Shown in pieces: positions 12,712 to 54,579 of a stretch of DNA of 64,000 bases. The notes under the pieces are model-generated. The model did no database searches, was not told where the DNA came from, and saw nothing but the letters and a program-made list of their open reading frames with translations. This DNA comes from Nannocystis bainbridge (GTDB taxonomy: Bacteria > Myxococcota_A > Polyangia > Nannocystales > Nannocystaceae). How positions within the stretch are numbered: the first letter of the stretch is position 1; each line of letters begins with the position of its first letter. The DNA is taken from assembly GCF_028368995.1 (NCBI RefSeq), contig NZ_JAQNDL010000003.1, positions 2,848,001 through 2,912,000 of the forward strand, given 5' to 3'. The position numbers were made by a program, and so were the translations under genes.

Positions 12712-14586
12712 ATGCACCGCTCCTTGAACGTATTCGGCGACGCGCGCCTCGTCGTCGCCCTCGCCTCGCTCGGCCTGGCCGCCTGCGGCGACGACGGCAC
12801 CGCCACTGATAGCGCCACCAACGCCACGACCTCCGGTCTCACCGCCACCGACGGCACCGCCACCACCACGCCGGACACGCCCACTGGCACCGCCTCGACC
12901 ACGCAGGACGGTTCCGGCTCAATGAGCGACACCGTCAGCCCGACCGAGCCGACCACCACCGATCCGACCGCGACCGGCGTCAGCGAGACCACCGACACCA
13001 GCGGCCCCGTCAGCGCCACCGACACCACCGCGACCACCGGCGAGACCTGTCAGAGCGCCGAGTGTTGCGACATGGGCGAGGTCTTCTGCGGCGAGGTCTG
13101 CTGCAGCGTCGGCGAGGTCTGCAACTTCACCAAGTGTGAGCTGCCCGGCGCCGAATGCAAGGAGACTGCCGATTGTGCGGACGACCAGTACTGTGATTAC
13201 TCGCTCGGCGAGCCTGACGTGAAGCCCCCCGATCCGCTGTGCATGGGCGGCGTCGCCGAGCCGACCGGCAAGTGCCTCACCCAGCCGCCCCTGTGCGGCC
13301 CCAACGATCCGCCGCAAGATCCCAACGACCCCGAGTGCCTGCAGAGCTGCGAATATACGATCGGCGGCGGCGAGTTCAACACCACCCTCAAGTTCGCCTG
13401 GGGCGGCGTCGTCGACCCGCCCTACGACAGCGACATCATGATGACCCCGATCGTCGTCCAGCTCGACGACGACGACTGCGACGGCAAGATCAGCGAGCGC
13501 GACATCCCCGAGATCGTGTTCTCCACCTTCGTCAGCGGCCAGTACCCCACCAACGGCTCGCTGCACGCCATCTCGATCGAGGAGGGCGTCGTCGTCGAAA
13601 AGTGGAACGTGCTCGCCGGCGCCATCAACCCGACCAAGCAGCTCGCCGGCGGCAACTTCGACGGTCAGCCCGGCAACGAGGTCGTCGCCTGCGGCAGGAA
13701 CGGCGAGGTGTTCGCCGTCAAGGGCGAGGACGGCACGCCGCTGTGGACCGTCAATCAGACCTGCTTCATGCCGGCGATCGCCGACCTCGAGGGTGACGGC
13801 AGCGTCGAGGTCATCGTCGAGGGCGCGATCCTCGACGGCGCCACCGGGGCGGTCAAGGCCACCTTCGACCCGCCGCTCAACAGCTCCTTCATCGTCAGCG
13901 ACCTCGACGACGACGGCATCCTCGACATCATCACCTCGAGCCGCGGTTACCACGCCGACGGCAGCATGTTCGTCGACACCCAGCTGGCCGCGACCGGCCA
14001 GTTTTATGCCACCCAGGACTGGAAGAGCCCGTGGCCGGCCATCGCCGACTTCGACGCTGACGGCGTGCCCGAGGTCGTCGTCATCGACAACCTCGCCCAC
14101 GCCCTCTCGGTCTGGCGCCACGACCCGAACGCCCCCGCCGGGTTCGTCGTCGTGCGCGGCCCCGTCGACATCAACGGCAGCCTCAACCCCACCCTGTGCC
14201 CGCAGGGCTCGTGGGGCCGCACCCACGGCGGCGGCCCGCCGACCGTCGCCGACTTCGACGGCGACGGCGTCCCCGACGTCGGCACCGCCGGCGGCATCGG
14301 CTACGCCGTGTTCAGCGGCGCCGCGCTCGTCGACCCCGCCGTGGCCGGCCCGGACACCCTGCTGTGGATCAAGCAGACCGCCGATTGTTCGTCGGCCTCG
14401 ACCGGCAGCTCGGTGTTCGACTTCGACGGCGACGGCAAGGCCGAGGTCGTCTACTCCGACCAGAACCGCCTGCGGATCTACGAGGGCCCGACCGGCGACG
14501 TCCTGCTCGAGCGCTGCAACACCACCGCGACCCTGATCGAGTACCCCGTGATCGCCGACGTCGACAATGACGGCTACATGGTCTAA
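12712..14586 (+). CDS. FG-GAP/VCBS-repeat lipoprotein, 5' part, interrupted by the island
   Basis: Lipobox LAAC, Thr-rich linker, Cys-rich region and repeated AD(F/L)DGDG motifs; ends abruptly as ...IEYPVIADVDNDG-YMV*, with the last three codons supplied by lower-GC island DNA. Confidence 0.9.
   Translation: MHRSLNVFGDARLVVALASLGLAACGDDGTATDSATNATTSGLTATDGTATTTPDTPTGTASTTQDGSGSMSDTVSPTEPTTTDPTATGVSETTDTSGPVSATDTTATTGETCQSAECCDMGEVFCGEVCCSVGEVCNFTKCELPGAECKETADCADDQYCDYSLGEPDVKPPDPLCMGGVAEPTGKCLTQPPLCGPNDPPQDPNDPECLQSCEYTIGGGEFNTTLKFAWGGVVDPPYDSDIMMTPIVVQLDDDDCDGKISERDIPEIVFSTFVSGQYPTNGSLHAISIEEGVVVEKWNVLAGAINPTKQLAGGNFDGQPGNEVVACGRNGEVFAVKGEDGTPLWTVNQTCFMPAIADLEGDGSVEVIVEGAILDGATGAVKATFDPPLNSSFIVSDLDDDGILDIITSSRGYHADGSMFVDTQLAATGQFYATQDWKSPWPAIADFDADGVPEVVVIDNLAHALSVWRHDPNAPAGFVVVRGPVDINGSLNPTLCPQGSWGRTHGGGPPTVADFDGDGVPDVGTAGGIGYAVFSGAALVDPAVAGPDTLLWIKQTADCSSASTGSSVFDFDGDGKAEVVYSDQNRLRIYEGPTGDVLLERCNTTATLIEYPVIADVDNDGYMV
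14554..14574 (+). other. attL of the integrative island
   Basis: GCCGACG-TCGACAA-TGACGGC; 19/21 identical to 53926-53946, and the two mismatches bracket a 7-bp core flanked by imperfect inverted repeats. Confidence 0.85.
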
Positions 14587-14654
14587 AATAGCTATTAGTG
14601 CTCGAATTCGAGATATTGTGTACTTTCGGACATGCTCCAGCGCGACCTTGATCT

Positions 14655-14672
14655 GGGTCGTTTTTGGTTCGA
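14655..14672 (+). promoter_or_regulatory. Putative integrase arm-type binding sites (left)
   Basis: GGGTCGTTTTTGGTTCGA matches GGGTCGAAATTGGTTCAA at 53833-53850. Confidence 0.5.
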
Positions 14673-14696
14673 TATCGGTGGGGGACGGAAATCGAG

Positions 14697-15950
14697 ATGC
14701 TCACGAATGCTCAGACACGAGAGGCGAAGTCGCGCGCGATCCGATATGAGATCACCTGTGATGCACTGCCAGGATTCATCCTGCGGGTGCTCCCCACTGG
14801 CAAGAAGGTGTTTTTCGCCAGGTACCGTGATGCTGGCGGAAAGGACAGGCGGGTAAGGCTTGGACTGATGCGGCCGGGGTTCGGTGCTGAGGAAGCGCGC
14901 CGAGAAGCGATGATCATCCTCGCGCGACGTGACGCGCCGGAGAGCGTCGACGCGCCCGCTACGCCAAGCACCCCGATCGAAGACGCGCCCTCGCTCGGAT
15001 CGAAGTCGCCCACGCTCGCCGAGTTCGCCTTGCGCTTTGAACAGGAACATATCGACATGCGCTTAAAGCCAGAAACGGCCTGGCACTACAAGTCGTCGCT
15101 CAAGAAATACATCCTCCCCAAGCTCGGCCACCGACGGCTGGACGACATCACCACCGGTGACGTGAACAAGCTCCATACCAGCATGAAGCCGACACCGTGC
15201 GCGGCGAACTACATGCGCTGCGTGCTGAACGCGTTGTTCAACAAGGCGGCCAAGTGGGGAGTGACCAAACAGCGCAATCCGGTCGCAGATGTCGAGCGCT
15301 TCGACGAGCGGTCCGTCGAGCGCTTCCTGTTGCCCGAGGAGCGCGAGGCGCTCGAGCGCGTGCTGGCGACGGCCGAGCGCACGCCGCCCGGCAGACACGG
15401 ACACATCGGACGCGAGGCGATCGCCGCGGTGCGGCTACTCGCGCTCACCGGCATGCGTCGCGATGAGGTCCGGGACCTCCGGTGGGAGCAGGTGGACTGG
15501 CGTCAGAAGATGCTCCGGCTCCCGGACTCGAAGACCGGCAAGCGCGACGTGGTGGTGTCGGACGAGGTCATGGAGCTGCTTGGGCGGATCGCCCAGGCCA
15601 AGGGCAACCCGCGGCGCGGGCTCGTCATTTGCTCACGCAACGGCAAGAAGCTCAAGAGCCTCCAGTCGACGTGGCTCAAGGTCCGCAAGCTGGCCGGTCT
15701 CGAGGATGTGCGCCTGCACGACCTCCGGCACTCGTTCGCCAGCGACGCGATCATGGACGGCACGCCGCTCGAGGTCGTCGGTAAGATGCTCGGCCACCGC
15801 AACTACCGCACGACGCAGCGCTACGCCCACATCGCCGACAAGGCGCTGCGCGAGGCGGTGAACCGGACGAGCAAGACGATCGCCCGCGCGGCGAGGGGCA
15901 AGGCGAAGGCCACCAAGCGGCCCGGCCCGGCCTCCCAGAAGCGGCGATAG
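14697..15950 (+). CDS. Tyrosine recombinase/integrase with N-terminal arm-DNA-binding domain
   Basis: D..LPGF.LRV.PTG.K.F..RYR N-terminal domain; catalytic motifs GMRRDE, SKTG, HDLRHSFAS and LGHRNYRTTQRYAH. Confidence 0.95.
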   Translation: MLTNAQTREAKSRAIRYEITCDALPGFILRVLPTGKKVFFARYRDAGGKDRRVRLGLMRPGFGAEEARREAMIILARRDAPESVDAPATPSTPIEDAPSLGSKSPTLAEFALRFEQEHIDMRLKPETAWHYKSSLKKYILPKLGHRRLDDITTGDVNKLHTSMKPTPCAANYMRCVLNALFNKAAKWGVTKQRNPVADVERFDERSVERFLLPEEREALERVLATAERTPPGRHGHIGREAIAAVRLLALTGMRRDEVRDLRWEQVDWRQKMLRLPDSKTGKRDVVVSDEVMELLGRIAQAKGNPRRGLVICSRNGKKLKSLQSTWLKVRKLAGLEDVRLHDLRHSFASDAIMDGTPLEVVGKMLGHRNYRTTQRYAHIADKALREAVNRTSKTIARAARGKAKATKRPGPASQKRR

Positions 15951-16167: not shown

Positions 16168-17109
16168 TTACGATCGGTCGCGCGCTTGCACGACGAGGGC
16201 GGCAGCGCCAGCACCCGCAGCAAAGCACGAGATACCGAACAGGATTTTGCGGCCGAGGCTCCAGTCCTTCCGGGCGGTGAGCTCGGCAAGCTCGGCCCGA
16301 TCGCGCATGTGAAGCTGCACGAGCTCCTGGTTCTCTTGTGCTAGCCGGTCCAGCTCGGACTGATCTTCCGCGCGGAGGCGCTCGAGCGACGTGTTCGAGC
16401 CACGGAGCCTGGCGAGCTCAGCGGCGTCGTCCGCGATCCGCTTCTCCAACGCGACATTATGTTCGTGGAGCTCTGTGATACGCGCGGTCAACTCCGCCAC
16501 CGCGGCCTTGACCTCTACGTTCGCCGCGCGCTCCGCGTCGGCCGCCGACTTCGCGGACGACGGGTTCGGGACGGCTCGAAGGTGCCGCACCTTCGCCTCC
16601 TGCTTCATGGCCTCCACGTCCTCAAGCCCGACTGCGATGGCCTCTTCAACGTCCTCGTCCATGAATTTGACGAACAAAAATTCTTGCTCGGCGCCCAGCG
16701 CGACCACGAGGCGGTCGAAGGTGGCGAGCGTGGGGTTCGGCTCGGGATCGTTGAGCAGGCTGCTGAGCTGAGAGCGGTTAATCCCGGAGACCTTGGCGAG
16801 CGCTGACACCGTCTGGATCTGCTCGCGCTCGATGATCTCCTTGAGCCGCCCGATGATCGCCGTCGGCTCGTTGAGCTCGAGGCCGTGGAAGCGGGCGCCG
16901 GCTTTTTGGACGAGCTCAAGGTAGAGCGCCAACTTCGGGTTTGGTTCAGGTTGGTCGAACAACGCGAGCACGTGCGCGGAGCTGTGCTCTGAGCGCTCCG
17001 CGAGCTCTTGTTTCGTCATGCCTGACCGCCGTAGCCATGCCTCCAATTCCCCGAACCAGCGACGCGTACCCATGGTAACCCATCGTAGGGTAGGCAGTGT
17101 GGCGGTCAA
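16168..17109 (-). CDS. Tandem XRE-like HTH protein with coiled coil and C-terminal TM helix
   Basis: Two homologous HTH blocks (ELAERS...PEPNPKL and ALAKVSGINRSQLS...PEPNPTL), a heptad-rich region and ILFGISCFAAGAGAAALVV. Confidence 0.75.
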   Translation of the reverse strand: MTATLPTLRWVTMGTRRWFGELEAWLRRSGMTKQELAERSEHSSAHVLALFDQPEPNPKLALYLELVQKAGARFHGLELNEPTAIIGRLKEIIEREQIQTVSALAKVSGINRSQLSSLLNDPEPNPTLATFDRLVVALGAEQEFLFVKFMDEDVEEAIAVGLEDVEAMKQEAKVRHLRAVPNPSSAKSAADAERAANVEVKAAVAELTARITELHEHNVALEKRIADDAAELARLRGSNTSLERLRAEDQSELDRLAQENQELVQLHMRDRAELAELTARKDWSLGRKILFGISCFAAGAGAAALVVQARDRS

Positions 17110-17113
17110 GGGT

Positions 17114-21049: not shown

Positions 21050-21935
21050 TTGCTATCGCGCAACTCGGCGAGCCGCTGTTGCTCGGCGCCGTCGGTGTTG
21101 CTCCTGGCGATCCCGCTGTTGCGGCTGTGATTGCGCGGCCACCGGTGCCGCTCCCGGCGAGCTGCTGTTGCTCGGCACCGTCCGTGTTGCTTCCGGTGAG
21201 CACGCTGGCGCGCGCTAAGATCACGGCGAGGTGACGGCGCGCGGCGAAGGTGATTGCGCGGCCGCGGTATTGCTCCGGCGAGCTGTTGTCGCCGTTGGGA
21301 TAGCGCTATCGCGCGCTGCGACCGTGCGCGCCGCTGTTGCTCGGCGCCAGCTTCCGGCGAGCCTCCGATGCGCGCTGTGACGAGGCGGTGGTGGTGGCCG
21401 GCGCGGGCGGCCGGCGCGTGGGCGCCGTCGACGAGGCGGGGGGTGTTGTGCTGCGCGGAGCGTCAGCGAGGCGGGGGTGTTTTGGCCGGCGCCTGGAGCG
21501 TTGGCCGGCGCGGGGGCTGTTGCTCCGAGCGATGGCGGGGACTGTTGTCTCGGGCGGGGCGTCGGCGAGGCGGAATTGTTGGCCGTCGCGCGGGCCGGCG
21601 CGGGGGGCTATCGTGCCAGGCGCTGGCGACCGCGCCCCCGGACGACGTTGTCGTGGGGGCGCGGTCGCATGGACGCGCAGGCGGCTACATCCGTCGGTGT
21701 TGCGCCCGGTGTGCCGCTGTCGCTCCGCGCGCGGCCGTTGGTGTTGCTCCCCGGCGAGCCGCTGTCGCTCGCCGGGATCGTGCGGCCGTCGGTGTTGCTC
21801 CCGGCGAGCCGCCGTCGCTCGCCACCGCCGCCGTTACGCCGCTGCGAGCGCGCGCCGTCGGTGTTGCTCCCGGCGAGCTGCTGTCGCTGGCCCGATGGTG
21901 TTGCTCGGCGCGGGCAACTGGCGTTGCTCGGCGCG
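21050..21935. repeat. Largest cluster of GTCGGTGTTGCTCCCGGCGAGC-type repeats
   Basis: More than 10 copies, e.g. near 21076, 21094, 21165, 21184, 21334, 21740, 21791, 21860 and 21897. Confidence 0.75.
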
Positions 21936-21942
21936 GAGCCTG

Positions 21943-23125
21943 TCAATGACTTTGAGACACGGTGTTGGTCGGGTTTAGTGATTGTGAGATTTCGCCGGAG
22001 TGGTGATGAAAGGATGGATCGGTCGTGCTGCACCCGTCCGAAAGGACATGGACGTCGTACTCGCGAAGGCCGCGTTCGAGGCGGCGCGGTGGGTTGATGT
22101 AGACCGCGGCGGGAGGCCGGCGCGGCGTGGACAGTCCGCGGACGAAGCGCTCGGGATGGGCTTCGTAGGCGGCGTGGAGGGCGGCAGCCCTGATGGACAG
22201 GATGGCCTCGGTGCGGCCGTAATGCACGTCGGCGGGCGCCAGGAAGGCGATGCCGGAGTGGCGGTGGTGATGGTTGTAGCCGTCGACGAAGCGGCCGCAG
22301 AAGGCGTGGGCGTGGTCGTAGGAGGCGAAGCGGTCGGGGTAGTCGTGGGTATACTTGAGGGTCTTGAAGTGGGCCTCCGAGTACGGATTGTCGTCGCTGA
22401 CGTGGGGCCGGCTGTGCGAGCGGCGGGCGCCGAGGACGTCGTAAAGGTCGGCGAGCTCGCGGGAGGTCGGGACGGCGCCGCGATCGGCGTGGATGGTCAA
22501 TTGGTCAGGTTGAATGTTCTGCTTGTCGCAGGCGGCGCGGATCAGGCGCGCAGCGATGTCGGCGCTCTCGCGGCGCGCCAGGGTCCAGCCGACGACGCAG
22601 CGGCTGTAGATGTCGAGCAGGACGTACAGGTAATAGTATTGGCCCTTCGTCGGTCCCCGCAGCCAGGTGACGTCCCACGACCACACCTGGTTCGGCGCGG
22701 TCGCCAGCAGCTCGGGGCGCTTGTACTCGGGGTGCCGCCGCTGTCGCCGGCGCTCGCGGAGCTCGCCCTCGGCGGCGAGCAGGCGATACATGGTGCGCGC
22801 GCTGCATAGCCAGCGCTGCTCGTCGAGCAGCATCGGCACGATGACCTCGGGCGCCTTGTCGACGAAGCGCTCGCTGTGCAGCAGTTCCAGCACCTCCTGG
22901 CGCTCCACCGCGCTCAGCGCCCGTGGCGACGGCCGCGGCTTCGCCGAGCTCGGCGACGGCGCAGGGCGGCGCCGACGGTACACGGTCGCCCGCGAGACCC
23001 CCAGCGCCTCGCACGCCCGCGACAGACCTGTCCTCGCGGACAGATCGTCCGCTTGCGCGATCAGGGCTTCTCGGACGGATCGATCGTCGCGAGCGGGATC
23101 CCGAGCAATTGCGAGACTTTTTTTT
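21943..23125 (-). CDS. IS3 transposase OrfB (DDE), probably expressed as an OrfAB fusion by -1 frameshift
   Basis: PNQVWSWDVT, LDIYSR, IHADRG and DNPYSEAHFKTLK; A8G slippery run at 23117-23125 on the minus strand. Confidence 0.9.
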
Positions 23126-23459
23126 GGACATCGATGATCAGCTCCGCCGTCTCGAGCTTGTGCTCGAGCTGCGCCACACGGCGGCGCAGGCGCTCCAGCT
23201 CCTTCTGCTCGGGGTCCTGCTTCGGCTTCGGTCCGCGTTTCTTCGGCTTCAACGCGCCCAGCGTACCCTCGTCTCGCTGCCGCCTCCAGGTCGACAACAG
23301 CGAGCTGTACAGGCCCTCCTTGCGCAGGATGGCGCCGATCTGCCCATCGCTCGCGTGGTCGGTCTGCGCGAGGATCTTCCGCTTGTACGCCGGCGTGAAG
23401 CTGCGACGCGTCGCCTTCTCGGCGGTCTCGGGGTCGGGCTCTCGTGCTTGAGTCGCCAT
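23061..23459 (-). CDS. IS3 transposase OrfA (HTH)
   Basis: RRSFTPAYKRKIL...ILRKEGLYSSLLSTWRRQ...IIDVQKKVS. Confidence 0.85.
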   Translation of the reverse strand: MATQAREPDPETAEKATRRSFTPAYKRKILAQTDHASDGQIGAILRKEGLYSSLLSTWRRQRDEGTLGALKPKKRGPKPKQDPEQKELERLRRRVAQLEHKLETAELIIDVQKKVSQLLGIPLATIDPSEKP

Positions 23460-23812
23460 CAGATCCATGCCTCCTTCCTCGCCCGATTCGAGCCCGAACT
23501 CCACCCGCGAGTGCGCCTCGGCATCGCCGCAAGCGCAGCAAGAATTTCGACGGGACTACGCCCTTGCTGACTCGCCGCATCGGTACCCGGCGACCTCGAC
23601 GCGCTCTCGCCTCGCCGACTCGATTGCTCCTTGTCTCTGCTCCGCAGCAGGGCGCTCCTGGCGATCGGGCCCGCTGTAGGTGAAGCAAGAACTTCGACGG
23701 GACTATACGATTGCTGACTCGCCGTATCGGCGCCCAACGGCCTTGCCGTGCTCTCGTCCGATCTACTCGATTGCTCTCCGTTACCGCTCTTCTCGATGGT
23801 TTGGTGACTCAT
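23459..23812 (-). CDS. Possible IS passenger/leader ORF with internal 49-aa duplication
   Basis: EQSSR..ES..R..G.D.ASQQ..SPVE.LA occurs twice in frame; its TGA overlaps the OrfA ATG (TGATG). Confidence 0.4.
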   Translation of the reverse strand: MSHQTIEKSGNGEQSSRSDESTARPLGADTASQQSYSPVEVLASPTAGPIARSALLRSRDKEQSSRRGESASRSPGTDAASQQGRSPVEILAALAAMPRRTRGWSSGSNRARKEAWI

Positions 23813-24077
23813 GTTCTCGATTCACGGTCTCGCCCTGCTCTCTGAATTCCGAAGGAGCCGTGTCTCACGCGATATTGGCAGGTAGGGGCGCGCGAGGTGT
23901 TGTTCGGTGCGCGAGCGCGCGGATCGGGGGGTGTTGCTCGACGCGAATGCGGGGATGCGGGATGTGGCTTGACGCGAGCGCGCGGGCCCGGGGTGTTGCT
24001 CGGCGCGGTGCTGTTTTGGCTCAGCTGGAATGGGACACGCCCCGGCCTGGTAGAAGGAGCCGGGGCAAGGACCGCCC

Positions 24078-25753: not shown

Positions 25754-27499
25754 GTGAAGCTGGAGGCTCACCGCGACCCGCTGCCTGGGTCGATCCTCGA
25801 AGGACGTTACAGGCTCGTGCGCCTCCTCGGCCGCGGCGGCATGGGCAGCGTATATGTGGCCGAGGAGACGCGGCTGGGGCGGTCCTACGCACTGAAGCTG
25901 CTCAAACCCGAGCTCACGGAGGACCGCGCGCAGATCGAGCGATTTCTCCGCGAGGCGCAGACGATCGCGCGGCTGGAGCACCCAAACATCGTCGACATTC
26001 ATTCATTCGGCGAGGACCCCTCGGGCTTCGTGTTCTTCACTATGGAGCTGCTGACCGGCGAGGACCTCGAGTCGCGGATCGCCGCGCGATCGGGCCGGCC
26101 CTACAGCGTGCGTGAGGCGTGCGCCTGGGCGATCCAGATCGCGCGCGCGGTCGGATACGTCCACCAAAACGGGCTGATCCACCGCGACCTCAAGACACAA
26201 AACGTCTTCCTCGCGCGCACGCGTGACGGCGGCGAGATCATCAAGCTGCTCGACTTCGGCATCGCGCGCCCGGAGAGCGGCTCGGAACTCACTCGCACGG
26301 GGAACATCCTCGGCACGCCGAGCTACATGTCACCCGAGCAGATCCGCGACGAGCGGCTGGACCGCCGCTCCGACATCTACTCGTTCGGCGTGCTGCTATT
26401 CAAGCTGCTCATCGGGCGCGCCCCATTCGTCGGCGAGGCGATCCAGGTGGCGATGCACCACCTCACCTCGCAGGTCCCGCCGCCGTCGTCGCTCGCGCCC
26501 GGCGCCGGGATCCCGCCGGCCCTCGACGAACTGGTCCTCAAGGCCCTGTCTAAACAGCCGGGCGACCGCTACGCCTCGATGGAGGAGGTCGAGCGCGCCC
26601 TCGTCGCGGTGTATGCGACCCCGCTGCTCGCCCCGCCGGTCAAGCTCGCGCCGCCCGCGGCATCCTCCCGGCCCCCCTCGTTACAACCCGAGGTCGACCA
26701 CGCCGACGAGGGGGCGCTCTCGCTCGCGACCACGGCGTCTCTGCTGCGCCCACCACGCTGCTCCGAGTCTCCCGCGGCGACTGTCCCCGCGAGCAGCGCG
26801 GCGCTCTCGGTCGACGAAGCGGCGCTCGACGAGGTTACGGCGCGGAGCCTCGTCGAGCGAGTGGCGACCGACCCGGCTCTGATTCCGGTCGCCGCCCCCC
26901 CGGCGCCGGCCAGTCCCTCGCCGGCGCGCACGAGCCAGCTCTGGCGTCTCCTCGCGCTCGGAGCGAGCCTTGCGTGCCTTCTCGCCCTCGCAACGTGGCT
27001 GGTCGCTCGCCTAGGGCTCAACATGCCGGCGGTCGTTTCCCCGGCCACCGCCCCGCCGGCCCCATCGATCGTCGCGTCGCCCTCTCCACCCATGCCGGAT
27101 ACGGCAAAGAGCGCTCCCATCATTCTGCCGGACCCGGCTCCGCCCGCGGCCGAGCCGCCTGCTCCCTCCGCGCCGGAGCCCGACGATGCCCCGAGCTCGA
27201 ACGACCCGGAGGACCCGCGACCGACGAAGGTCGATCGCCCGAAGTCAGAACCCGTGAAGCCGAAGGTCAGCCCACCGGACCCGATCGCCCGGATCAAGGA
27301 GCGAGCCCGCGCCTGCCGCCGGAAGCACAACGCCGTCGACCAGCCTGCGCTCACCGTCGAATTCGCGGTTGGGAGCGACGGCGCCGTCCTGCGCGCCACG
27401 CCCGCGAGCGACACCCCGCTCGCCATCTGCCTCGCCGATGCCGTGAAGCAGGCCCGCTTCGAGCCCAAGATCCGGCTCCGGCAGGAGATCTCTCTGTGA
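25754..27499 (+). CDS. Membrane Ser/Thr protein kinase with TonB-C/AgmX-like C-terminal domain
   Basis: LGRGGMGSVY, ALKLL, HRDLKTQN, DFG, GTPSYMSPE and SDIYSFG; TM helix; C-terminal C...VEFAVGSDGAV...ICLADAV..ARF. Confidence 0.92.
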   Translation: MKLEAHRDPLPGSILEGRYRLVRLLGRGGMGSVYVAEETRLGRSYALKLLKPELTEDRAQIERFLREAQTIARLEHPNIVDIHSFGEDPSGFVFFTMELLTGEDLESRIAARSGRPYSVREACAWAIQIARAVGYVHQNGLIHRDLKTQNVFLARTRDGGEIIKLLDFGIARPESGSELTRTGNILGTPSYMSPEQIRDERLDRRSDIYSFGVLLFKLLIGRAPFVGEAIQVAMHHLTSQVPPPSSLAPGAGIPPALDELVLKALSKQPGDRYASMEEVERALVAVYATPLLAPPVKLAPPAASSRPPSLQPEVDHADEGALSLATTASLLRPPRCSESPAATVPASSAALSVDEAALDEVTARSLVERVATDPALIPVAAPPAPASPSPARTSQLWRLLALGASLACLLALATWLVARLGLNMPAVVSPATAPPAPSIVASPSPPMPDTAKSAPIILPDPAPPAAEPPAPSAPEPDDAPSSNDPEDPRPTKVDRPKSEPVKPKVSPPDPIARIKERARACRRKHNAVDQPALTVEFAVGSDGAVLRATPASDTPLAICLADAVKQARFEPKIRLRQEISL

Positions 27500-30125: not shown

Positions 30126-30127
30126 GG

Positions 30128-32959: not shown

Positions 32960-33062
32960 TCCACGCCGCGCCCGCTGCATGCGGGTGCTCGACGGCGGTC
33001 GTCACCGCCGAACCCTTGCGATGACAACCGCGCTCGCACGAGCGCCACAGGTGAGGTGTATC

Positions 33063-43526: not shown

Positions 43527-44168
43527 ATGACGAGCCCCAGCATGGAGAACCTGCTCAAACGCGTCGACATCGTGCTCGCCCACGGGCCCGTCTACTTGGG
43601 GCCATGGGCGCGCCGACACGCTGGTGCTCGACTCGCTGAGCTGGAGCTCATGTACAGCCTCGTGAACGGATTTCTCGCGTTCGACCGTGCCCTCCGGGTC
43701 TTCCCGGCAATTCCGGTCCATGAGGCTGCAAGCCTGAATTCGTGGAACGAGCCCCAGAACTGGCGCGACTACTACGGCGATCTTGCGAAAGATCTGCTGT
43801 TCTTCGCAGATGATGTCTTCGGAGGCCAGTTCTGTATCAAGCAGAACAAGGTCTTCGCGTTCGATCCTGAGACGGGCGACCTCGAGTGGCTCGCCGACGA
43901 CCTTGAGGCGTGGGCTGCAGTCCTGCTGGACGACACCGACAACCGCACGGGCCGGCCGCTCGCAGTCGCTTGGCAGGCGAGGTTCGGTCCCCTCGCTCCC
44001 GGTCAGCGTCTGCTCCCGACCCGCTTGTTCACGCTCGGCGGAGAGTTCTCGCTCGACAACCTCACGGTCAAGGACGCCACGGCGGGCATGCGGATCCGAG
44101 GCCCGATCGCCCAGAAGATCCACGACTTGCCGGACGGCGCGCAGCTACAGTTCGAGATCACGGACTAA
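43527..44168 (+). CDS. Immunity protein, SMI1/KNR4(SUKH)-like plus DUF1851-like
   Basis: Starts 3 nt after the toxin stop; NGFLAF, LLFFADDVFGGQFC, FDPETG and PTRLFTLGGEFSLDNL. Confidence 0.8.
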   Translation: MTSPSMENLLKRVDIVLAHGPVYLGPWARRHAGARLAELELMYSLVNGFLAFDRALRVFPAIPVHEAASLNSWNEPQNWRDYYGDLAKDLLFFADDVFGGQFCIKQNKVFAFDPETGDLEWLADDLEAWAAVLLDDTDNRTGRPLAVAWQARFGPLAPGQRLLPTRLFTLGGEFSLDNLTVKDATAGMRIRGPIAQKIHDLPDGAQLQFEITD

Positions 44169-47021: not shown

Positions 47022-47651
47022 GGTCGCAAGATGCCTGCCCACGCGGGCGTGGTCAACGAGCATCGTCGCATTTGGTACGCCAGCATACCAACTGGCGACA
47101 CAAGCCTGGGTCCGATCGCGGTCGCGGCGTTCGACGCGGAAATGCCCCCCGCGGAGCGTGACGCGGCGATGGCGGAACATCTGGCAGCGGCATGTCGGGC
47201 GAGGCCGGAGCCCTGTTCTTGGTCATCATGGGCGGCCTTCATGCCACGCGCGCCGCTTCGCCGGACTTCGAGCCGAGGGCCACTCGCCCCGCGGCGTTGA
47301 TCTACCCGTGACGGGTCGTGTCGCTACGACTCGCGCACGTGGGTGGCGACGCGTGGCTGTGCACGGAGGAGTGCGGGCCGCACGAACTCGACGGACAGCG
47401 TCGGGGTCCCCGCTCGATCGAGCTGTTCGATCGGCTCACTGACGGTGAGTTCTACGTCGGGCCGATCCACGCGTCCCCGCCGCCGTCACAGGGCCGGCCC
47501 GCTAGTCGTCGTGCGGCGCGTACGCAGTTCCCGCCCCGACGCACGCCCCAAGCCCCGGGGAACAGCCAGAGGCCGAGAGCTCGCATGGGGCGACTTTTGC
47601 CTTGACGAACTCGGCGCCCCTGGGGAACCTCTCCCGCCCAGGAACAGCGCG

Positions 47652-48527
47652 ATGGCGAGCTACGGTGAGGTCACGGTCCGCGAAATTCTTGACGACAGGA
47701 AGTTGCGCCTCGAGATCGCCGCGATGTTGGACATGACGGAGAGGGCCATCCTCCGAGATCTGTCCGGCGAGGAAGAGCACAGACTCCTTCGGGATTTCTA
47801 CGATCCCGTGCCAGGAGACCTTGAGACGATGAGCGTCTCTGACGCTCGAGGAGACGTTGAGGTCATCGCCAAGATCGCCCGGCACACGAACCTGACGATC
47901 GAATCGGTTGACTGGGATCTCGAGAACACGCACGGTCGGACTCTGCTCCCCAAGGTGTTCGATTTTGTCTGGTTGCCGCGGCCCAGGGCCCAGCAGGTCG
48001 TGGAACCTCCACGACAGGTGCAGTTCCATCCAGTTGTGAAGCCGGCCATCCTCCGCTTCTCGTCGGCCACATCGCAACCGGCTATCTTCGGGAGCTACTC
48101 GCACAAGGACCGCAAGTTCGTCGACGCTGTTCGGCTCCATCTGAAGCCGTTGGAGAGGGACAACTCGCTCGAGTTCTGGGATGACTCAAAGATCAAGACC
48201 GGAGCGAAGTGGCGCGACGAGATCCAAATGGCGATTGAGCGCGCTTCGGCAGCCGTCCTCTTCATCAGCGCAAATTTCCTGGCCTCCGACTTCATTCATA
48301 CCGACGAGATTCCACCGCTCCTCGCCGAAGCAAAGCGTCGAGGCACGGTGATTCTTCCGCTCATCGTCGGGCACTGCTTGTTCACACAACACCCCGTGCT
48401 CTCCACGTTCCAAGCCTTCAACGACCCGAACCGGCCGGTTGGAACCTTGGGAAAGAATGAGCGCGACAAGCTGTACGTGAAGCTGGCAACCCAACTGGCC
48501 TCGTTGAAGCGCCGCGACGATTCCTAG
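47652..48527 (+). CDS. TIR-domain protein
   Basis: IFGSYSHKD, WDDSKIKTGAKWRDEI, LFISANFLASDFI..DEIP (catalytic Glu position retained); lower GC than neighbours. Confidence 0.85.
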   Translation: MASYGEVTVREILDDRKLRLEIAAMLDMTERAILRDLSGEEEHRLLRDFYDPVPGDLETMSVSDARGDVEVIAKIARHTNLTIESVDWDLENTHGRTLLPKVFDFVWLPRPRAQQVVEPPRQVQFHPVVKPAILRFSSATSQPAIFGSYSHKDRKFVDAVRLHLKPLERDNSLEFWDDSKIKTGAKWRDEIQMAIERASAAVLFISANFLASDFIHTDEIPPLLAEAKRRGTVILPLIVGHCLFTQHPVLSTFQAFNDPNRPVGTLGKNERDKLYVKLATQLASLKRRDDS

Positions 48528-48824: not shown

Positions 48825-51800
48825 GTGTCGTCGCAACGGAGTTCGTCCCCGCCGGTCGAGGTGCTGATCGTGACGGCGCTCCGGATGGAGCGTGATGCGG
48901 TCAAGGCGGTGAGCACTGGAGCGCTGGGCGTCTGGAGCGAGGAGCGTGTGCCGGGCACTGGGCTGCGAGTGGAACGGCGGTCGTTCGCTGCGGCAGACGG
49001 GGCGAGGCTGACCGTCGCGTTGATCTGCGCGGAGGACATGGGCGGGACGCAGACCGCAGGCGTCGCCGGCCCGGTCGTGATGGCGCTACGGCCGCGGTGT
49101 TTGGCGATGTGCGGGGTGCTGGCCGGGAAGCCGGGAGACACCGAGTTCGGCGACGTGGTGTTCGCCGACCAGTTGCTCCTCCACGACTCGGGGAAGCGAA
49201 CGGCGAAGGGCTTCCAGCACGGGACCCGGCCCCATGTCATGGATATCCGGTGGGTGGAGAAGGCGCGTGACTTCGCCGAGGATCCTGGCGACGCGCTCGC
49301 ATGGCTGCGCGGGCCGGACTGGACCGTCGATCAGCAGCGGGCGTGGCTGCTCGATCAGTTCGCGCGAGGGCGTGGCTCGCAAAGCCTCGGGCCGTTGCTC
49401 GCGGAGTGTTGCCCGGAGTACGAGAGCATCGTCGCGGGGCTGCTCGCGGAGGAGCTGGTCCATCCGGGGGACCAGCCGCTCACCGAGCAAGGCAAGAAGC
49501 ACGTCGACGCCGAGCGGTTCAAGTCGCAGCGCTGGCCGGGACTCGATCCACCGCGGCGCTCGCTGCGGGTCCATGTCGGGCCGATCGCCTCCGGCAACGC
49601 TGTGCAAGGGGACGAGGTGCTCTGGGATGAGCTCGAGACGTTCGCGCGCAAGGTGCTGGGCGTCGAGATGGAGGCCCACGCGGTCGCCAACACGGCGGAA
49701 CTCCTGCAGCTCGAGCTCGCGGTGGTCATGAAGGGCGTGATGGATCATGCCGACAAGCACAAGGACGACCGCTTCAAATCGTTCGCCGCGCGGGCCTCGG
49801 CAGAGTGCCTGCTCGCGTTCCTGCGGCGAAATAGCGCCACACGGGTACGAACGGGGTATGACGACATCCTGTCGCCGGGGACTGCGACGTTGCCGGACGA
49901 CCCGAGCCCGTCCCGCCTGCTACACCCGTCGTACGAGGTGGTGAAGTTCTTCCGGGCGGGGCGGAAGGACATCCTGGCCGAGCTAGACGAGTGGTGCACG
50001 ACCGGGAAGGCGGTGCAGGGGCGACTCGTCCACGGTCCGGGGGGATTCGGCAAGACCCGATTGGCGATCGAGTGGACACGTGACCTGCGCGAGCGCGGGT
50101 GGGCGGCCGGATTTCTTCACGCGCACGTTGTCGAGGACTGGTTCGACCGCGTGGTCGGACTCGGGATGCCGGTCGCCGTGGTGATCGACTACGCCGAGAG
50201 CCGCGCCGAACTACGGCAACTGCTCGCGCCAGTGCTTCAGTACGCGTCGGCCAGGGTGAAGTTGCCGGTGCGGATCCTGCTGCTCGCGCGTGGGGTAGAC
50301 GACTGGTGGCAGGCGCTGCTCGAGGGCGACGAGTCGCGGCGTGCGTTTCTCACAGCGGTACCGCCAGTACCGCTGCGACCGCTCGCCGACGGGTCGGAGG
50401 TGCGGGTGGAGGTGTTTCGTGCCGCCGCGGCCGAGTTCGCGGCGCGGCGCGGCCGGACGGCGCCGACGGTGTCCAGGGCGCTGACAGACCCGATCTTCGA
50501 TCGTGCCCTGTACATTCACATGGCGGCGCTCGCGGCGGTAGACGAGCTGGACCTACAACCGCCCCGGAAGGCAGAGGAGGAGCCGCTGTTGGCGGCGATC
50601 CTCGAGCACGAGGAGCGCTTCTGGGACGAACGGCAGAAGCGACACGACCGGCAGCACCGCCTCCACGTCGAGCGGGCGCGCCGGCTCGTGGCGGCCGCCA
50701 CCCTGCGCGGCGGCTTACCGACGCGTGAGGTGGCGAACGCCATCGGAACCCGGCTGAGGGCCGCGGACGAGGATCTGCTCATGCTGCTGCACGACGTGTA
50801 TGGCGCGCCGGGTAGCGGAGGCGGACCCGGGACCTACGTGGGTCCTCTCGAGCCCGACCTACTCGGCGAGGGCATGGTGCGGCGGACGTATCGGCGCATG
50901 GACGAGCCGCGGGAGAACTACATTGACGGGGTGTTCGAGGACGCCGACGCGGACCGTCTCCGCCATGGTTTTGAGGCTCTGGGGCGAGCTGCGGTGGGCG
51001 AGAAGCCGGTGGTCCGTCCGTGGATCGATCGACTGTTGGCGCGGGAGACGGCAACGCGGGCACTGCTCGCGTTCGCAGCGGCGAAGGCCGTCGGCCGGCG
51101 CACGGCCTTGTCTGTACTCGGCGATGCGTTGGCCGATGCGCTCGAGCGAGCCGGGGACGCACGTGTGGCCGCGGCTCTCGAACACGACGGAATTCCAACG
51201 CAGACGGTCACGCTTCGCCGCGTCGCGGTGTGGGTAAGCAGAGCGCTGCTGGCAGCGGCCCCGGATGGGGAGGAGGAGAACTTTCTCTCGCAGCGGGCTC
51301 ATGTCCTGAACAACCTCGGCAACAGGCAGAGCGAGGTCGGACAGCGGGAGGCGGCGCTCGCGTCGACGGCGGAGGCGGTGCGCATCTACGAGGAGCTGGC
51401 GAAGCGGAACCCGGACGCGTTCCAGCCGGACCTCGCCATGAGCCTGAACAACCTCGGCAACAGGCAGGGCGAGGTCGGGCAGCGGGAGGCGGCGCTCGTG
51501 TCGGTGGCGGAGGCGGTGCGCATCTTCGAGGAGCTGGCAAAGCGGAATCCAGACGCGTTCCAGCCGGACCTCGCCGCAAGCCTGAACAACCTCGGCGCTA
51601 TGCAGAGTGAGGTCGGGCAGCGGGAGGCGGCGCTCGTGTCGACGGTGGAATCGGTGCGCCTCCGTAGGGAGCTGGCGAAGCGGAACCCGGACGCGTTCCA
51701 GCCGGACCTCGCCGCAAGCCTGAACAACCTCGGCAACAGGCAGAGCGAGGTCGGGCAGCGGGAAGCGGCGCTCGCGGAGGCGGCGGAGGCGGTGCGCATC

Positions 51801-53360
51801 TACGAGGAGCTGGCGAAGCGGAACCCGGACGCGTTCCAGCCGGACCTCGCCGCAAGCCTGAACAACCTCGGCCCCATACAGAGCGGGGTCGGGCGGCGGG
51901 AGGAGGCGCTCGCGTCGGCGGCGGAGGCGGTGCGCATCTATGAGGAGCTAGCGAAGCGGAACCCGGACGCGTTCCAGCCGGACCTCGCCCTGAGCCTGAA
52001 CAACTTCAGCGCCATGCAGAGCGAGGTCGGGCAGCGGGAAGCGGCGCTCGCGTCGGTGGCGGAGTCGGTGCGCATCTACGAGGAGCTGGCGAAGCGGAAC
52101 CCGGACGCGTTCCAGCCGGACCTCGCCGCGAGCCTGAACAACCTCGGCAACAGGCAGAGCGAGGTCGGGCAGCGGAAAGCGGCGCTCGCGTCGGTGGCGG
52201 AGGCGGTGCGCCTCCGTAGGGAGTTGGCGAAGCGGAACCCGGACGCGTTCCAGCCGGACCTCGCCGCGAGCCTGAACAACCTTGGCATCATGCAGAGCGA
52301 GGTCGGGCAGCCGGAGGCGGCGCTCACGTCGGCTGCGGAGGGGGTGCGCGTCTACGAGGAGCTGGCGAAGCGGAACCCGGACGCATTCCACCCGGACCTC
52401 GCCGCGAGCCTGAGCAACCTCGGCAACAGACAGAGCCAGGTCGGGCAGCCAGAGGCGGCGCTCGCGTCGGTGGCGGAGGCGGTGCGCATCTACGAGGAGC
52501 TGGCGAAGCGGAACCCGGACGCGTTCCAACCGCACCTCGCCGCGAGCCTGAACAACCTCGGCAACAGGCAGAGCGAGGCCGGGCGGCGGGAGGCAGCGCT
52601 CGCGTCGGTGGCGGAGGCGGTGCGCATCCGTAGGGAACTGGCGAAACGGAACCCGGACGCGTTCCAGCCGGGCCTCGCCATCAGCCTGAACAACCTCGGC
52701 ATTATGCAGAGCGAGGTCGGCCAGCCGGAAGTGGCGCTCGCGTCGGCTGCGGAGGGGGTGCGCATCTACGAGGAGCTGGCGAAGGGGAACCCGGGTGTGT
52801 TCCACCCGGAACTCGCCGCGAGCCTGAACAACCTCGGCTCAAGGCAGAGCGAGGTCGGCCAGCGGGAGGCGGCGCTCGAGTCGGTGGCGGAGGCGGTGCG
52901 CATCTACGAGGAGCTGGCAAAGCAGAACCCGGACGCGTTCCAGCCGCACCTCGCCATGAGCCTGAACAACCTCGGCGCCATGCAGAGCGAGGTCGGCCAG
53001 CGGGAGGCAGCGCTCGCATCGATGGCGGAGGCGGTGCGCATCCGTAGGGAGCTGGCGAAGCGGAACCCGGACGCGTTCCAGCCGCACCTCGCCATGAGCC
53101 TGAACAACCTCGGCGCCATGCAGAGCGAGGTCGGCCAGCGGGAGGCGGCGCTCGCGTCAGCAGCGGAGACGTTTGACCTGTACTGGCCGCACTTCGCTGC
53201 ACACCCCGAAAACTTCGCGCGAAACATGATGATCTCGCTGCGGAATCTCCTCCGACGACAGCGCGACGCGGGACTAGCTCCGGACGCGGCGCTGCTCGAG
53301 CGTGTCGGCGTCCTCCGCGGGTTGGGCCTCGACATGCCGCTCGATTTGGATAGCGGATGA
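48825..53360 (+). CDS. NLR-like protein: PNP/MTA-nucleosidase effector + P-loop (STAND-like) NTPase + TPR array
   Basis: LIVTALRME, MCGVLAG..GDVV, GPIASGN, GVEMEAHA and KGVMDHAD..KDD (PNP_UDP-like); HGPGGFGKTRLA and VVIDYAE; 14 LNNLG repeats. Confidence 0.88.
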   Translation: MSSQRSSSPPVEVLIVTALRMERDAVKAVSTGALGVWSEERVPGTGLRVERRSFAAADGARLTVALICAEDMGGTQTAGVAGPVVMALRPRCLAMCGVLAGKPGDTEFGDVVFADQLLLHDSGKRTAKGFQHGTRPHVMDIRWVEKARDFAEDPGDALAWLRGPDWTVDQQRAWLLDQFARGRGSQSLGPLLAECCPEYESIVAGLLAEELVHPGDQPLTEQGKKHVDAERFKSQRWPGLDPPRRSLRVHVGPIASGNAVQGDEVLWDELETFARKVLGVEMEAHAVANTAELLQLELAVVMKGVMDHADKHKDDRFKSFAARASAECLLAFLRRNSATRVRTGYDDILSPGTATLPDDPSPSRLLHPSYEVVKFFRAGRKDILAELDEWCTTGKAVQGRLVHGPGGFGKTRLAIEWTRDLRERGWAAGFLHAHVVEDWFDRVVGLGMPVAVVIDYAESRAELRQLLAPVLQYASARVKLPVRILLLARGVDDWWQALLEGDESRRAFLTAVPPVPLRPLADGSEVRVEVFRAAAAEFAARRGRTAPTVSRALTDPIFDRALYIHMAALAAVDELDLQPPRKAEEEPLLAAILEHEERFWDERQKRHDRQHRLHVERARRLVAAATLRGGLPTREVANAIGTRLRAADEDLLMLLHDVYGAPGSGGGPGTYVGPLEPDLLGEGMVRRTYRRMDEPRENYIDGVFEDADADRLRHGFEALGRAAVGEKPVVRPWIDRLLARETATRALLAFAAAKAVGRRTALSVLGDALADALERAGDARVAAALEHDGIPTQTVTLRRVAVWVSRALLAAAPDGEEENFLSQRAHVLNNLGNRQSEVGQREAALASTAEAVRIYEELAKRNPDAFQPDLAMSLNNLGNRQGEVGQREAALVSVAEAVRIFEELAKRNPDAFQPDLAASLNNLGAMQSEVGQREAALVSTVESVRLRRELAKRNPDAFQPDLAASLNNLGNRQSEVGQREAALAEAAEAVRIYEELAKRNPDAFQPDLAASLNNLGPIQSGVGRREEALASAAEAVRIYEELAKRNPDAFQPDLALSLNNFSAMQSEVGQREAALASVAESVRIYEELAKRNPDAFQPDLAASLNNLGNRQSEVGQRKAALASVAEAVRLRRELAKRNPDAFQPDLAASLNNLGIMQSEVGQPEAALTSAAEGVRVYEELAKRNPDAFHPDLAASLSNLGNRQSQVGQPEAALASVAEAVRIYEELAKRNPDAFQPHLAASLNNLGNRQSEAGRREAALASVAEAVRIRRELAKRNPDAFQPGLAISLNNLGIMQSEVGQPEVALASAAEGVRIYEELAKGNPGVFHPELAASLNNLGSRQSEVGQREAALESVAEAVRIYEELAKQNPDAFQPHLAMSLNNLGAMQSEVGQREAALASMAEAVRIRRELAKRNPDAFQPHLAMSLNNLGAMQSEVGQREAALASAAETFDLYWPHFAAHPENFARNMMISLRNLLRRQRDAGLAPDAALLERVGVLRGLGLDMPLDLDSG
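51306..53170 (+). repeat. 138-bp (46-aa) TPR-coding tandem repeat, 14 units
   Basis: CTGAACAAC-type unit starts at 51306 + n x 138, up to 53100. Confidence 0.95.
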
Positions 53361-53832
53361 GCCCATACATGGCCGCGGGGACAGATGACGACAAGGCCGA
53401 GTTGGTCGGCGCGGCAGCGCCTGTCCTTTCTTTCGACGGTGGACGTTCTGCTCGTCTCGACGGTTCGCAGGCCGGCGGTCCCAAAGCTTGTTTAAGCGGG
53501 GAGTGCATGCGATCGGCGACTTCATCGCCGCGCCGGGCGCTCGCCCGCTGCCGACCTACCCGAAGCGCACGCGGCCTCGGCCTGATCGCCAGGACTCACC
53601 CTCGGCTGCGTATGCTGAGTCGCCGCGATGACTCGAACTAGCATGACCGAGTAGACATGCCCCAATGGACAGTATGGAGCGCCAGCGCGCGATACTCCTG
53701 ATGCCCCATGGGGACTCGGTCCCGATGTCCAGGCAGCCGGCAATGGTCCGTAGTCGGCCCCGAGGCTGGCGGCATTCCGGGGGGTCTGCGTTGACGCGTC
53801 GAGTTATGCGCGGTCGTGAGATCTCCAGCTCC

Positions 53833-53861
53833 GGGTCGAAATTGGTTCAACTTTGGTACGA
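53833..53861 (+). promoter_or_regulatory. Putative integrase arm-type binding sites (right)
   Basis: GGGTCGAAA-TTGGTTCAA-CT-TTGGTACGA, 11-bp-spaced repeats matching 14655-14672. Confidence 0.5.
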
Positions 53862-53922
53862 ATTCCTGTCGAGCGGGATCAAAGTGACGAATTCGCGGGA
53901 ATTGAGCCCACCTGCATAGCCT

Positions 53923-54579
53923 ATGGCCGACATCGACAACGACGGCCAGGCCGACATCGTCGTCGTCTCCAACGCCTACGGCAAGAACGACCCGAGCATC
54001 AGTTGCGTCGAGGACGGCGTCAGCGGTCAGTCCGGCGTGCGCGTGTTCGGCACCGCCGGCGGCAAGTGGGTGCGCACGCGCCGGGTCTGGAATCAGCACA
54101 CTTATCATATCACCAATGTCAACGAGGACGGCACGATCCCCGCAGGCGAGGAGCCCAACTGGACCGTCCCGGACTTCAACAACTTCCGCCAGAACAAGCA
54201 GCCCGACAGCGAGCGCGGCGCCCCCGACGCGATCGTCGCCATCGCCCCGCTGTGCGAGGAGAGCGACTACTCCTTGACCGCCACCGTCCGCAACATCGGC
54301 GAGGCCCCGCTCCCGCCTGGCGTCGTCGTCGGCTTCTACACCGGCGTCCCCGACACCGGCATGAAGATCGGCGAGCTCGTCACCACCAAGGCCCTCTACC
54401 CGCTCGAGTCCGAGACCCTCAAGCTCCCGTTCAACGACGCCCCCGCCGACGTCAAGAACGGCATCGTCGACATCTACGCCATCGTCGACGATACCATGGT
54501 CCCGCACCCCGAATGGCAGGAGTGCCGCATCGACAACAACACCGGCACCAGCACCGGCAAGTGCCTCATCGCCGGCTGA
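53923..54579 (+). CDS. FG-GAP lipoprotein, 3' part (last FG-GAP blade plus CARDB-like Ig domain)
   Basis: M-ADIDNDGQADIVVVSN...WVRTRRVWNQHTYHITN...ATVRNIGEAP...VDD...EC..DNN continues the protein at 12712-14574. Confidence 0.88.
   Translation: MADIDNDGQADIVVVSNAYGKNDPSISCVEDGVSGQSGVRVFGTAGGKWVRTRRVWNQHTYHITNVNEDGTIPAGEEPNWTVPDFNNFRQNKQPDSERGAPDAIVAIAPLCEESDYSLTATVRNIGEAPLPPGVVVGFYTGVPDTGMKIGELVTTKALYPLESETLKLPFNDAPADVKNGIVDIYAIVDDTMVPHPEWQECRIDNNTGTSTGKCLIAG
53926..53946 (+). other. attR of the integrative island
   Basis: GCCGACA-TCGACAA-CGACGGC; host-like codon usage resumes here. Confidence 0.85.

Follow-up and report, generated by a model that had tools for sequence, protein, structure and literature searches.

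Genomic islands with P4-like integrases of the Arm-DNA-bind_3 type insert into tRNA genes, a conserved target present in many copies, and their integrase gene abuts the left attachment site (attL). Other elements interrupt protein-coding genes and restore them on excision; the skin element in sigK and the nifD and fdxN elements in heterocysts are the familiar examples, and the concept of regulated gene integrity under which they are placed is said to come from Mageeney et al. in 2020. The usual picture is of one conserved, single-copy target for each integrase family, which the island either repairs or uses as a switch. Here we describe a 39.4-kb island which interrupts the gene for an FG-GAP/VCBS lipoprotein in a 64,000-nucleotide stretch of the Nannocystis bainbridge genome (hereafter the window; G000:C2:2848001-2912000 in our notation, where G000 is the source genome of 11.05 Mb, with about 70% GC and 5 contigs, numbered with C). 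We consider this element to be, most probably, an ordinary site-specific integrative cargo island which uses the motif DNA of redundant gene families as its bacterial attachment site (attB). The mechanism is not new, as integrase islands in protein-coding genes are already known. What the locus suggests is a third attB logic, in which the site would be kept constant by protein structure, plentiful across a gene family and individually dispensable.

The island shares with the P4-like tRNA islands the combination of Arm-DNA-bind_3, SAM-like and catalytic domains, an integrase gene that abuts attL and a conserved multi-copy target, but this target is the DNA of a protein-coding motif and is not repaired by the island. 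A further link is provided by a distant homologue of the integrase (locus L065), which adjoins the genes for tRNA-Pro and tRNA-Leu. Like the elements of regulated gene integrity, the window's island is a mid-gene integrase island whose own attachment site (attP) supplies no replacement for the lost part of the gene, and its precise excision would restore the open reading frame (ORF); unlike them, it is not fixed at its locus in relatives, its target is redundant and it has the look of an ordinary cargo island. The DusA-specific integrases are described as a clade that inserts at one conserved position in a protein-coding gene, dusA being struck at its 5′ end (PMC4482086). The integrases considered here likewise form a clade at a conserved protein-coding position with islands of varied cargo. 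The target there is a single-copy housekeeping gene, whereas here it is a set of motifs in multi-copy, non-essential repeat-protein genes, with several attB sites per genome and three motif classes, and the window's target is left truncated by an attP that lacks replacement sequence. Another report takes up islands that disrupt genes under the term ‘regulated gene integrity’, and according to it the integrase clade of the HE-PICIs repeatedly targets prophage late genes (PMC10111431). That clade too repeatedly disrupts one functional gene class without replacement; the targets there belong to helper prophages and the disruption serves satellite timing, in contrast to the chromosomal surface and repeat-protein genes struck here, for which no helper relationship is visible. 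In the open-access literature searched, no paper was found that connects integrases with FG-GAP genes or with islands of Nannocystis, and among the matches listed there was nothing relevant on myxobacterial attB or paralogous attachment sites.

Insertion into an FG-GAP lipoprotein gene

The left part of the interrupted gene is an ORF of 624 aa (12712..14586, plus strand) that ends in PVIADVDNDGYMV (EYPVIADVDNDGYMV), that is IADVDNDG followed by YMV and a stop codon. The right part (53923..54579, plus strand; 218 aa) begins with MADIDNDGQADIVVV, an M followed by ADIDNDGQ, and shares the reading frame of the left part. Codons 1-621 on the left are native, while the final three codons and the stop derive from the arm of the island; together with codons 9-218 on the right they amount to 831 codons, a figure obtained by arithmetic and not by building the joined sequence. 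The two boundaries carry 21-bp direct repeats, attL (GCCGACGTCGACAATGACGGC, 14554..14574, plus strand) and attR (GCCGACATCGACAACGACGGC, 53926..53946, plus strand), which are offset by 39,372 bp and identical at 19/21 positions, the two mismatches flanking a core, TCGACAA. When the letters are read out, the attB and attP deduced from these repeats each have inverted arms that agree at 6/7 positions. The split ORFs, the repeats with their offset and core, and the inverted arms had all been noted in an earlier reading of the window made without database searches (the sequence-only reading), and all are borne out on the letters.

The ATG at 53923 is island DNA, with an in-frame TAG two codons upstream. 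The right end of the island (53917-53925) reads TAG CCT ATG directly before attR, so that an in-frame ATG opens the stranded 3′ part. The deduced attP would itself read as an 11-codon mini-ORF, MADIDNDGYMV followed by a stop, with no evident ribosome-binding site; this may be due to chance.

Taken alone, the 21-bp repeat would say little about insertion, because its motif recurs as the FG-GAP loop: near-copies with 3 mismatches lie within the target gene at 14044 and 14248, the relaxed form of the motif occurs 27 times in the genome, and the deduced attB 21-mer has 3 further exact copies there. It is the comparison with relatives that settles the matter. When each half of the gene was searched separately in 41 genomes, five genomes of the same genus (G010, G007, G005, G001 and G003) matched both halves at 81-88% identity, next-best matches reaching at most 64%. 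In all five a single open frame contains both matches, and the 27 nt by which they overlap are the shared motif. The intact orthologues are lipoproteins of 833, 832, 831, 831 and 833 aa, counted from the conserved Met and with the lipobox LAAC, and their empty site reads gtgatcGCCGAC[G/A]TCGACAA[C/T]GACGG[C/G/T]caggccgacatcgtc (caggccgac), the left flank of attL joined to the right flank of attR. At two loci (L004 and L006) it is identical, letter for letter, to the attB that the sequence-only reading had reconstructed. That reading had called for a comparison with related genomes for an uninterrupted allele, and its claim of an insertion is confirmed by 5/5 congeners.

Several further features agree with an insertion. 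None of the five congeners has the island at this locus, and none of its genes turned up at the orthologous loci. On the left flank, synteny extends to 5/5 relatives for the YccF-like and GST genes, and to 4/5 for two further neighbours. The GC content at third codon positions (GC3) is 0.94 in the 5′ part of the gene and 0.95 in the 3′ part, and 0.92-0.97 in flanking host genes, as against 0.74-0.88 in the island ORFs, so that it shifts at both boundaries. The locus has what is expected of a site-specific island, namely direct repeats with an adjoining integrase, an empty attB in 5/5 relatives and a distinct GC3 and gene content, and no further att-like 21-mer (up to 3 mismatches) was found inside the island, which argues for a single element. 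Sequence comparison establishes the insertion into an intact gene as real, and on paper excision would restore an ORF of 831 aa.

The target belongs to a family of FG-GAP/VCBS lipoproteins of about 800 aa that occurs widely across Polyangia (among the candidates scored, 513 proteins reach E≤1e-20) and whose members carry only the names FG-GAP/VCBS repeat protein and, in a few cases, ‘hemolysin-related protein RbmC’ in the source. At least 16 members in the source genome, the target included, reach the DNDG position. The 5′ part matches Pfam FG-GAP_3 and FG-GAP, carries the lipobox LAAC and is 81-87% identical to the intact orthologues; the 3′ part, which has no signal peptide, is 86-88% identical to their 3′ ends. 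With six DxDxDG motifs and its lipobox, the target has the marks of an FG-GAP beta-propeller lipoprotein. A structural model of the G005 orthologue (mean pLDDT 72) has a disordered N-terminal part rich in Thr, Ser and Pro, a small Cys-rich module, a propeller at about residues 224-660, a poorly modelled linker and a C-terminal beta-sandwich at 716-823. Among solved structures it is matched best by Bap1, a protein of the Vibrio cholerae biofilm matrix (6mlt, E=1e-21). In this model the insertion point, residues 615-621, is a loop between strands 613-615 and 624-629 in the last blade. The product of the truncated gene would be without the final part of its propeller and without any of the C-terminal domain, and is likely to have lost its function.

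Related integrases and the motifs they strike

The tyrosine integrase gene (14664..15950, plus strand) starts 77 nt past the stop of the truncated ORF. Its product has Pfam Arm-DNA-bind_3, SAM-like, central and catalytic domains and matches phrog_1; the catalytic segment matches Pfam Phage_integrase at E=1.3e-28 and aligns to the structures of a XerC-like protein (4a8e) and of XerA (5hxy). Residues R265, H352, R355, H378 and Y387 are all in place. The sequence-only reading had judged the enzyme catalytically intact, and the full catalytic set was indeed located; by these residues it is a tyrosine recombinase with predicted recombination activity. Between attL and the integrase lies a conserved left arm (14575..14663, plus strand), of the pattern TACATGGT..8..GC..7..GCTCGAATTCGA, with a palindrome, CTCGAATTCGAG, at 14601-14612. 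The same arm is found upstream of five related integrases in four other Nannocystis genomes; a search for the pattern in 401 genomes of the class returned only these six sites, the window's included and all in the genus, while another 26 occurrences lie on JGI metagenome contigs. Part of the arm, CGAATTCG, recurs at 53888, near attR.

Homologues of the integrase, sought at E≤1e-40 in the 41 genomes, were found in 15/41, all of the same bacterial family, and in 0/16 genomes from other families of the class. The upstream DNA was read at 40 distinct loci (three more are duplicates), seven of which lie at contig ends or hold integrase fragments and are not assessable. At 26 of the 33 assessable loci the integrase stands directly behind a repeat-protein gene cut at one of three motifs. 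The most frequent arrangement, seen at 17 loci, places it 74-85 nt 3′ of a paralogue from the lipoprotein family that is cut at (R/K)xWNQHxYx(I/V)T(N/K), a position 66 codons past that of the window's insertion. At four loci (the window, L026, L042 and L050) the gene in front of it is of the FG-GAP type and is cut at D(V/L)DND(G); at five it is a Cys-rich-repeat gene of the myxobacterial kind, interrupted at CDD(G/A)N. One of the remaining loci adjoins tRNA genes (L065, described above) and six are unexplained. The integrase at L026 is 72% identical to that of the window and lies in a different gene, which has acquired the same island-encoded tail, Y(V/M)V and a stop. Among the metagenome contigs with the arm, 23/26 likewise show the cut at CDD(G/A)N, the surrounding repeats varying from contig to contig. 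The other three (L085, L093 and L095) have one shared left side of non-coding appearance (..GTACACGACAACGGCAATGTCG) in place of the Cys-rich-repeat gene, and in L095 this junction lies in the middle of a 26.5-kb contig; they may represent attP of a circular form, or tandem islands. An integrase in G009:C1 (L041), of clade A, stands behind an ORF ending in STDNGDFNSADLEK followed by VRLAA and a stop, with the Asp/Asn-rich look of a calcium loop, and may mark a fourth target class.

At the level of DNA, the CDDGN-type attL agrees with the window's attL at 14/21 positions in the same frame (GAC GNC GNC AAT G..). The relatives' majority attB reads G...C about the core and the T at 14568 is present in the arm of related islands too, which supports the crossover placement of the sequence-only reading. 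Since this T belongs to the island arm of both the CDDGN and the window types, we infer that the exact crossover lies to the left of 14568. In an alignment of 44 homologues of the target (54-97% identity) both motifs struck in the FG-GAP family are invariant blocks, with invariant residues A615, V617, D618, D620 and G621 in one and W669, N670, H672, Y674 and N678 in the other.

A maximum-likelihood tree of 34 integrases groups the DNDG and CDDGN integrases in one clade (9 rows, support 99/98) and the WNQH..ITN integrases in another (21 rows, 100/99). The CDDGN integrases are monophyletic (97/95) and sister to those of the window and L026; the tRNA-adjacent and the unexplained distant homologues fall outside both clades. 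One row labelled ‘other’, L043, is an integrase that begins at base 5 of its contig, without an upstream flank, and is counted among the loci that are not assessable. Sequence comparison thus shows recurrent targeting by this group, with the target class following the integrase phylogeny. ARAGORN found tRNA genes at 1/8 loci of the more distant homologues (L065), and the idea that tRNA targeting was ancestral draws on this single locus.

The source genome holds further islands of this type. A second one of about 30.8 kb (G000:C4:~715,929-746,710; L121, L122 and L044) lies in a paralogous FG-GAP lipoprotein gene, which is cut after NQHTYHITN, continues with MVPMS and a stop, and resumes at HHITNIGEDG. 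Its two ends have a core of 8 bp in common, ATCACCAA, flanked by mismatches in the same geometry as in the window. The cargo, with kdp and ars-like genes, is unrelated to that of the window: it comprises a kdp operon (kdpABC) with KdpDE, an ACR3-type transporter accompanied by a low-molecular-weight phosphatase, a porin, an ECF sigma factor and a kinase. The two islands have in common a backbone gene for a Cro/C1-type helix-turn-helix (HTH) regulator (16168..17109, minus strand, in the window; Pfam HTH_26 and HTH_3, PHROG repressor families), 72% identical between them. The integrase frame of the C4 island runs on into an IS4/5 fragment (DUF4096). A third, degraded trace (G000:C3:471,971-473,250; L063) has its integrase in two overlapping pieces, likely through a frameshift, behind a degenerate ORF ending in RWNHRTYHITNVIRLS and a stop, and N-terminal fragments of integrases lie at C1:1278209 and C2:97625.

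Landing pad, switch or remnant

We propose the following scheme. The integrase would act by conservative recombination, with a crossover in or beside TCGACAA, and integrate the island into the DNA for the calcium loop A-D-V-D-N-D-G in the last propeller blade of the lipoprotein, truncating the protein after residue 621 and stranding the last 210 codons. For the clade as a whole, attB would be short, conserved, motif-coding DNA in multi-copy repeat-protein genes: DxDNDG in FG-GAP genes, CDDGN in Cys-rich-repeat genes and, for the sister clade, WNQHxYxITN in the same lipoprotein family. Such a site would be chosen as conserved, present in many copies per genome and individually dispensable, a landing pad comparable to tRNA genes, and we infer from this redundancy that disruption of the gene would be a tolerated side effect and not a regulatory device. 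It is quite possible, though we advance it tentatively, that a clade of integrases in this bacterial family has shifted from tRNA-type targets to the invariant-motif DNA of large paralogous families of secreted repeat proteins, namely that of the Ca-binding loops DxDNDG and CDDGN and of the post-propeller WNQHxYxITN, gaining many interchangeable attB sites per genome and coexisting islands (three traces in this genome), with each integration or excision removing or restoring one Bap1/RbmC-like matrix-adhesin member. If this is true, the cell-surface repertoire is at once exploited and reshaped by these islands, whose integrases would be natural multi-site, motif-addressed recombinases. An attB of this kind would explain why several related islands occur in one myxobacterial genome of 11-13 Mb and would predict the paralogues into which an island is liable to insert. 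For genetics in Nannocystis and related bacteria, in which engineering is difficult, it would also offer integrases with several natural landing sites. Annotators of these genomes would have to read a "short" FG-GAP or Cys-rich-repeat gene with an integrase behind it as an interrupted gene and not as a new variant.

Some observations sit less easily with this proposal. The right flank is not syntenic: four window genes 3′ of the stop have no match (E≤1e-5) within about 9.5 kb in the five relatives, which suggests a local history more complex than a single clean insertion. Seven of the 33 assessable loci fall outside the three motifs (one beside tRNA genes, six unexplained), and the clade comes from one bacterial family and from kindred genomes, so the loci are not all independent events. 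No clear excisionase was found with Pfam or PHROGs, the sole candidate being a small mid-island HTH_17 protein (31365..31706, minus strand) below the Pfam cut-off (E=4e-4) and with a weak match to phrog_66, ‘excisionase and transcriptional regulator’ (E=9.5e-5). An insertion sequence (IS) has entered the island, which is therefore not brand new and could be decaying. Excision junctions were not recovered either: a search of sequencing runs found no run of this strain, the best being soil metagenomes that hold 0.21-0.39 of the sampled words.

As to the last point, four of these soil runs, compared with positions 12000-31999, yielded short contigs from mixed relatives. Two of the contigs cease to match exactly at 14574 (X1 record 4, 852 nt; X2 record 9, 167 nt), with 1 mismatch in 255 and in 157 bases, respectively, against the left half, the comparison being on the left side only. 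They would fit an empty site, and we take them as a hint only. The exact 44-nt empty-site sequence of L006 had 0 matches in the JGI metagenome contigs. PHROGs, run on 20 ORFs, matched only the integrase, repressor-type regulators and the weak excisionase-like HTH protein, and no virion, packaging or lysis genes; among 28 island ORFs no Pfam or NCBIfam family for a relaxase, a coupling protein or type IV secretion was met, several ORFs being unassigned, so this is not proof of absence. Since the integrase, the two att sites and the two halves of the gene are intact, precise excision appears possible and would restore the gene, and the island may still be able to excise. We also considered relaxed selection as an insertion clock. 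In pairwise comparisons with the orthologues, the ratio of nonsynonymous to synonymous substitution rates (dN/dS) was 0.32-0.52 for the source genome and 0.27-0.52 for the intact G003 lineage; the measure did not separate the two and was dropped.

How far do other explanations account for these data? One is that there has been no insertion, the two ORFs being natural separate genes or an artefact of assembly and the 19/21 repeat a recurring FG-GAP motif. The copies of the motif within the gene and across the genome, and the lack of synteny on the right, could be read in this way, but the orthologues are contiguous in 5/5 relatives with a junction made of exactly the outer flanks of attL and attR, the integrase follows the stop of the truncated ORF here as at 25 other loci, and GC3 shifts at both boundaries of the island; we regard this explanation as extremely improbable. 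Another accepts the site-specific insertion and holds that the island is now an immobile remnant, its directionality factor lost or its regulation decayed, so that the gene is permanently knocked out and would go on to decay. The want of a convincing excisionase and the IS element inside the island would suit a remnant, as would the state of its relatives in the same genome, where the C3 integrase is in two overlapping pieces next to a degenerate target, the C4 integrase frame continues into an IS fragment and N-terminal integrase fragments lie on C1 and C2. The window's integrase ORF is nevertheless complete, with no catalytic residue missing, each att site is intact, the halves of the gene have neither stop nor frameshift nor a rise in dN/dS, and the near-identical soil contigs cease to match, on the left side at least, just where an empty site would. 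On balance we think a remnant unlikely.

The sequence-only reading had suggested a third explanation, a toggle of the kind known from the skin and nifD elements, in which a domesticated island would excise on a programme of starvation, fruiting or DNA damage and restore the lipoprotein. An intact integrase, att sites alike at 19/21 positions and gene halves free of stops and frameshifts are what such a switch would need, dN/dS lies within the range of the intact G003 lineage, and a regulator gene adjoins the integrase. The insertion is in mid-gene and the island adds only YMV and a stop, so that attP has no replacement for the 3′ part of the gene, a property described as typical of regulated gene integrity (PMC10111431). 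Conservation at the same locus is lacking, as 0/5 congeners have the island here and it is not maintained across the lineage. The family of the target moreover counts at least 16 paralogues in this genome, related integrases are found in many different paralogues and at two other motifs, the cargo consists of ordinary accessory toxin and defence genes that are wholly different in the sister island, and the undecayed halves are equally explained by a recent insertion. With an empty locus in all five congeners, a redundant target and a clade whose insertions are spread over many paralogues and another gene family, the switch fits the wider pattern poorly and the toggle is not supported; we think it distinctly improbable.

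Cargo and neighbouring DNA

The sequence-only reading had also proposed toxin and defence cargo, and this part of it stands. It includes a gene for an Rhs/YD-repeat polymorphic toxin (37644..43523, plus strand) with SpvB and TcdB_midN N-terminal parts, FG-GAP and RHS_repeat segments, a TIGR03696 core and a C-terminal DNase_NucA_NucB tip. Four nucleotides past its stop begins a gene for a SUKH/SMI1-KNR4-like protein (43527..44168, plus strand; Pfam matches below threshold, E=2e-4), which from its position is likely to be the immunity partner of the Rhs tip. The pair has the features of a polymorphic toxin with its immunity protein, and the toxicity is predicted. Directly upstream of the Rhs gene lies a gene for a 1313-aa protein of no known family (32979..36920, plus strand), which had no match in Pfam, NCBIfam, PADLOC or PHROGs and only unnamed clusters (84 and 78 members) in the ESM Atlas; a partnership with the Rhs system is possible. 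A ThsB-like TIR-domain protein (47343..48527, plus strand; Pfam, PADLOC) is followed by a STAND-type protein that joins a nucleosidase (PNP_UDP_1), AAA_16 and TPR (48825..53360, plus strand; Pfam, NCBIfam, PADLOC).

The cargo further includes two Ser/Thr protein kinases, one at 25754..27499 (plus strand; Pfam Pkinase, with PADLOC PD-T4-6-like models that are a generic kinase match) and one at 28620..30167 (minus strand; Pfam, PADLOC), and a Crp-like cNMP-binding regulator at 31928..32959 (plus strand; Pfam). The HTH_17 protein discussed above has a 42% identical paralogue just downstream (about 31120-31347), with which it forms a tandem pair. The IS element spans 21934..23887 (minus strand), with an rve transposase (Pfam) in the ORF 21943-23688. 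A 1954-bp copy, 100% identical, lies at G000:C3:881079-883032 and copies of 87-93% identity occur on C1 and C2; by these matches the element looks recently active. A 307-aa ORF of no known family (17109-18029, minus strand) contains near-identical tandem repeats, with self-matches of 93-100% within 17368-17776, and a 60-aa piece of it is also present at G000:C1:4514610.

To the right of the interrupted gene, positions 54580-64000 have no counterpart within about 9.5 kb of the orthologous gene in the five congeners; this may be another variable segment, or the breakpoint of a rearrangement. Besides a TPR protein, these positions encode a 629-aa unknown ORF, a WYL/HTH_11 regulator (57640-58728) and an ORF of 404 aa in which DxDNDG-like motifs occur near 59684-59723.

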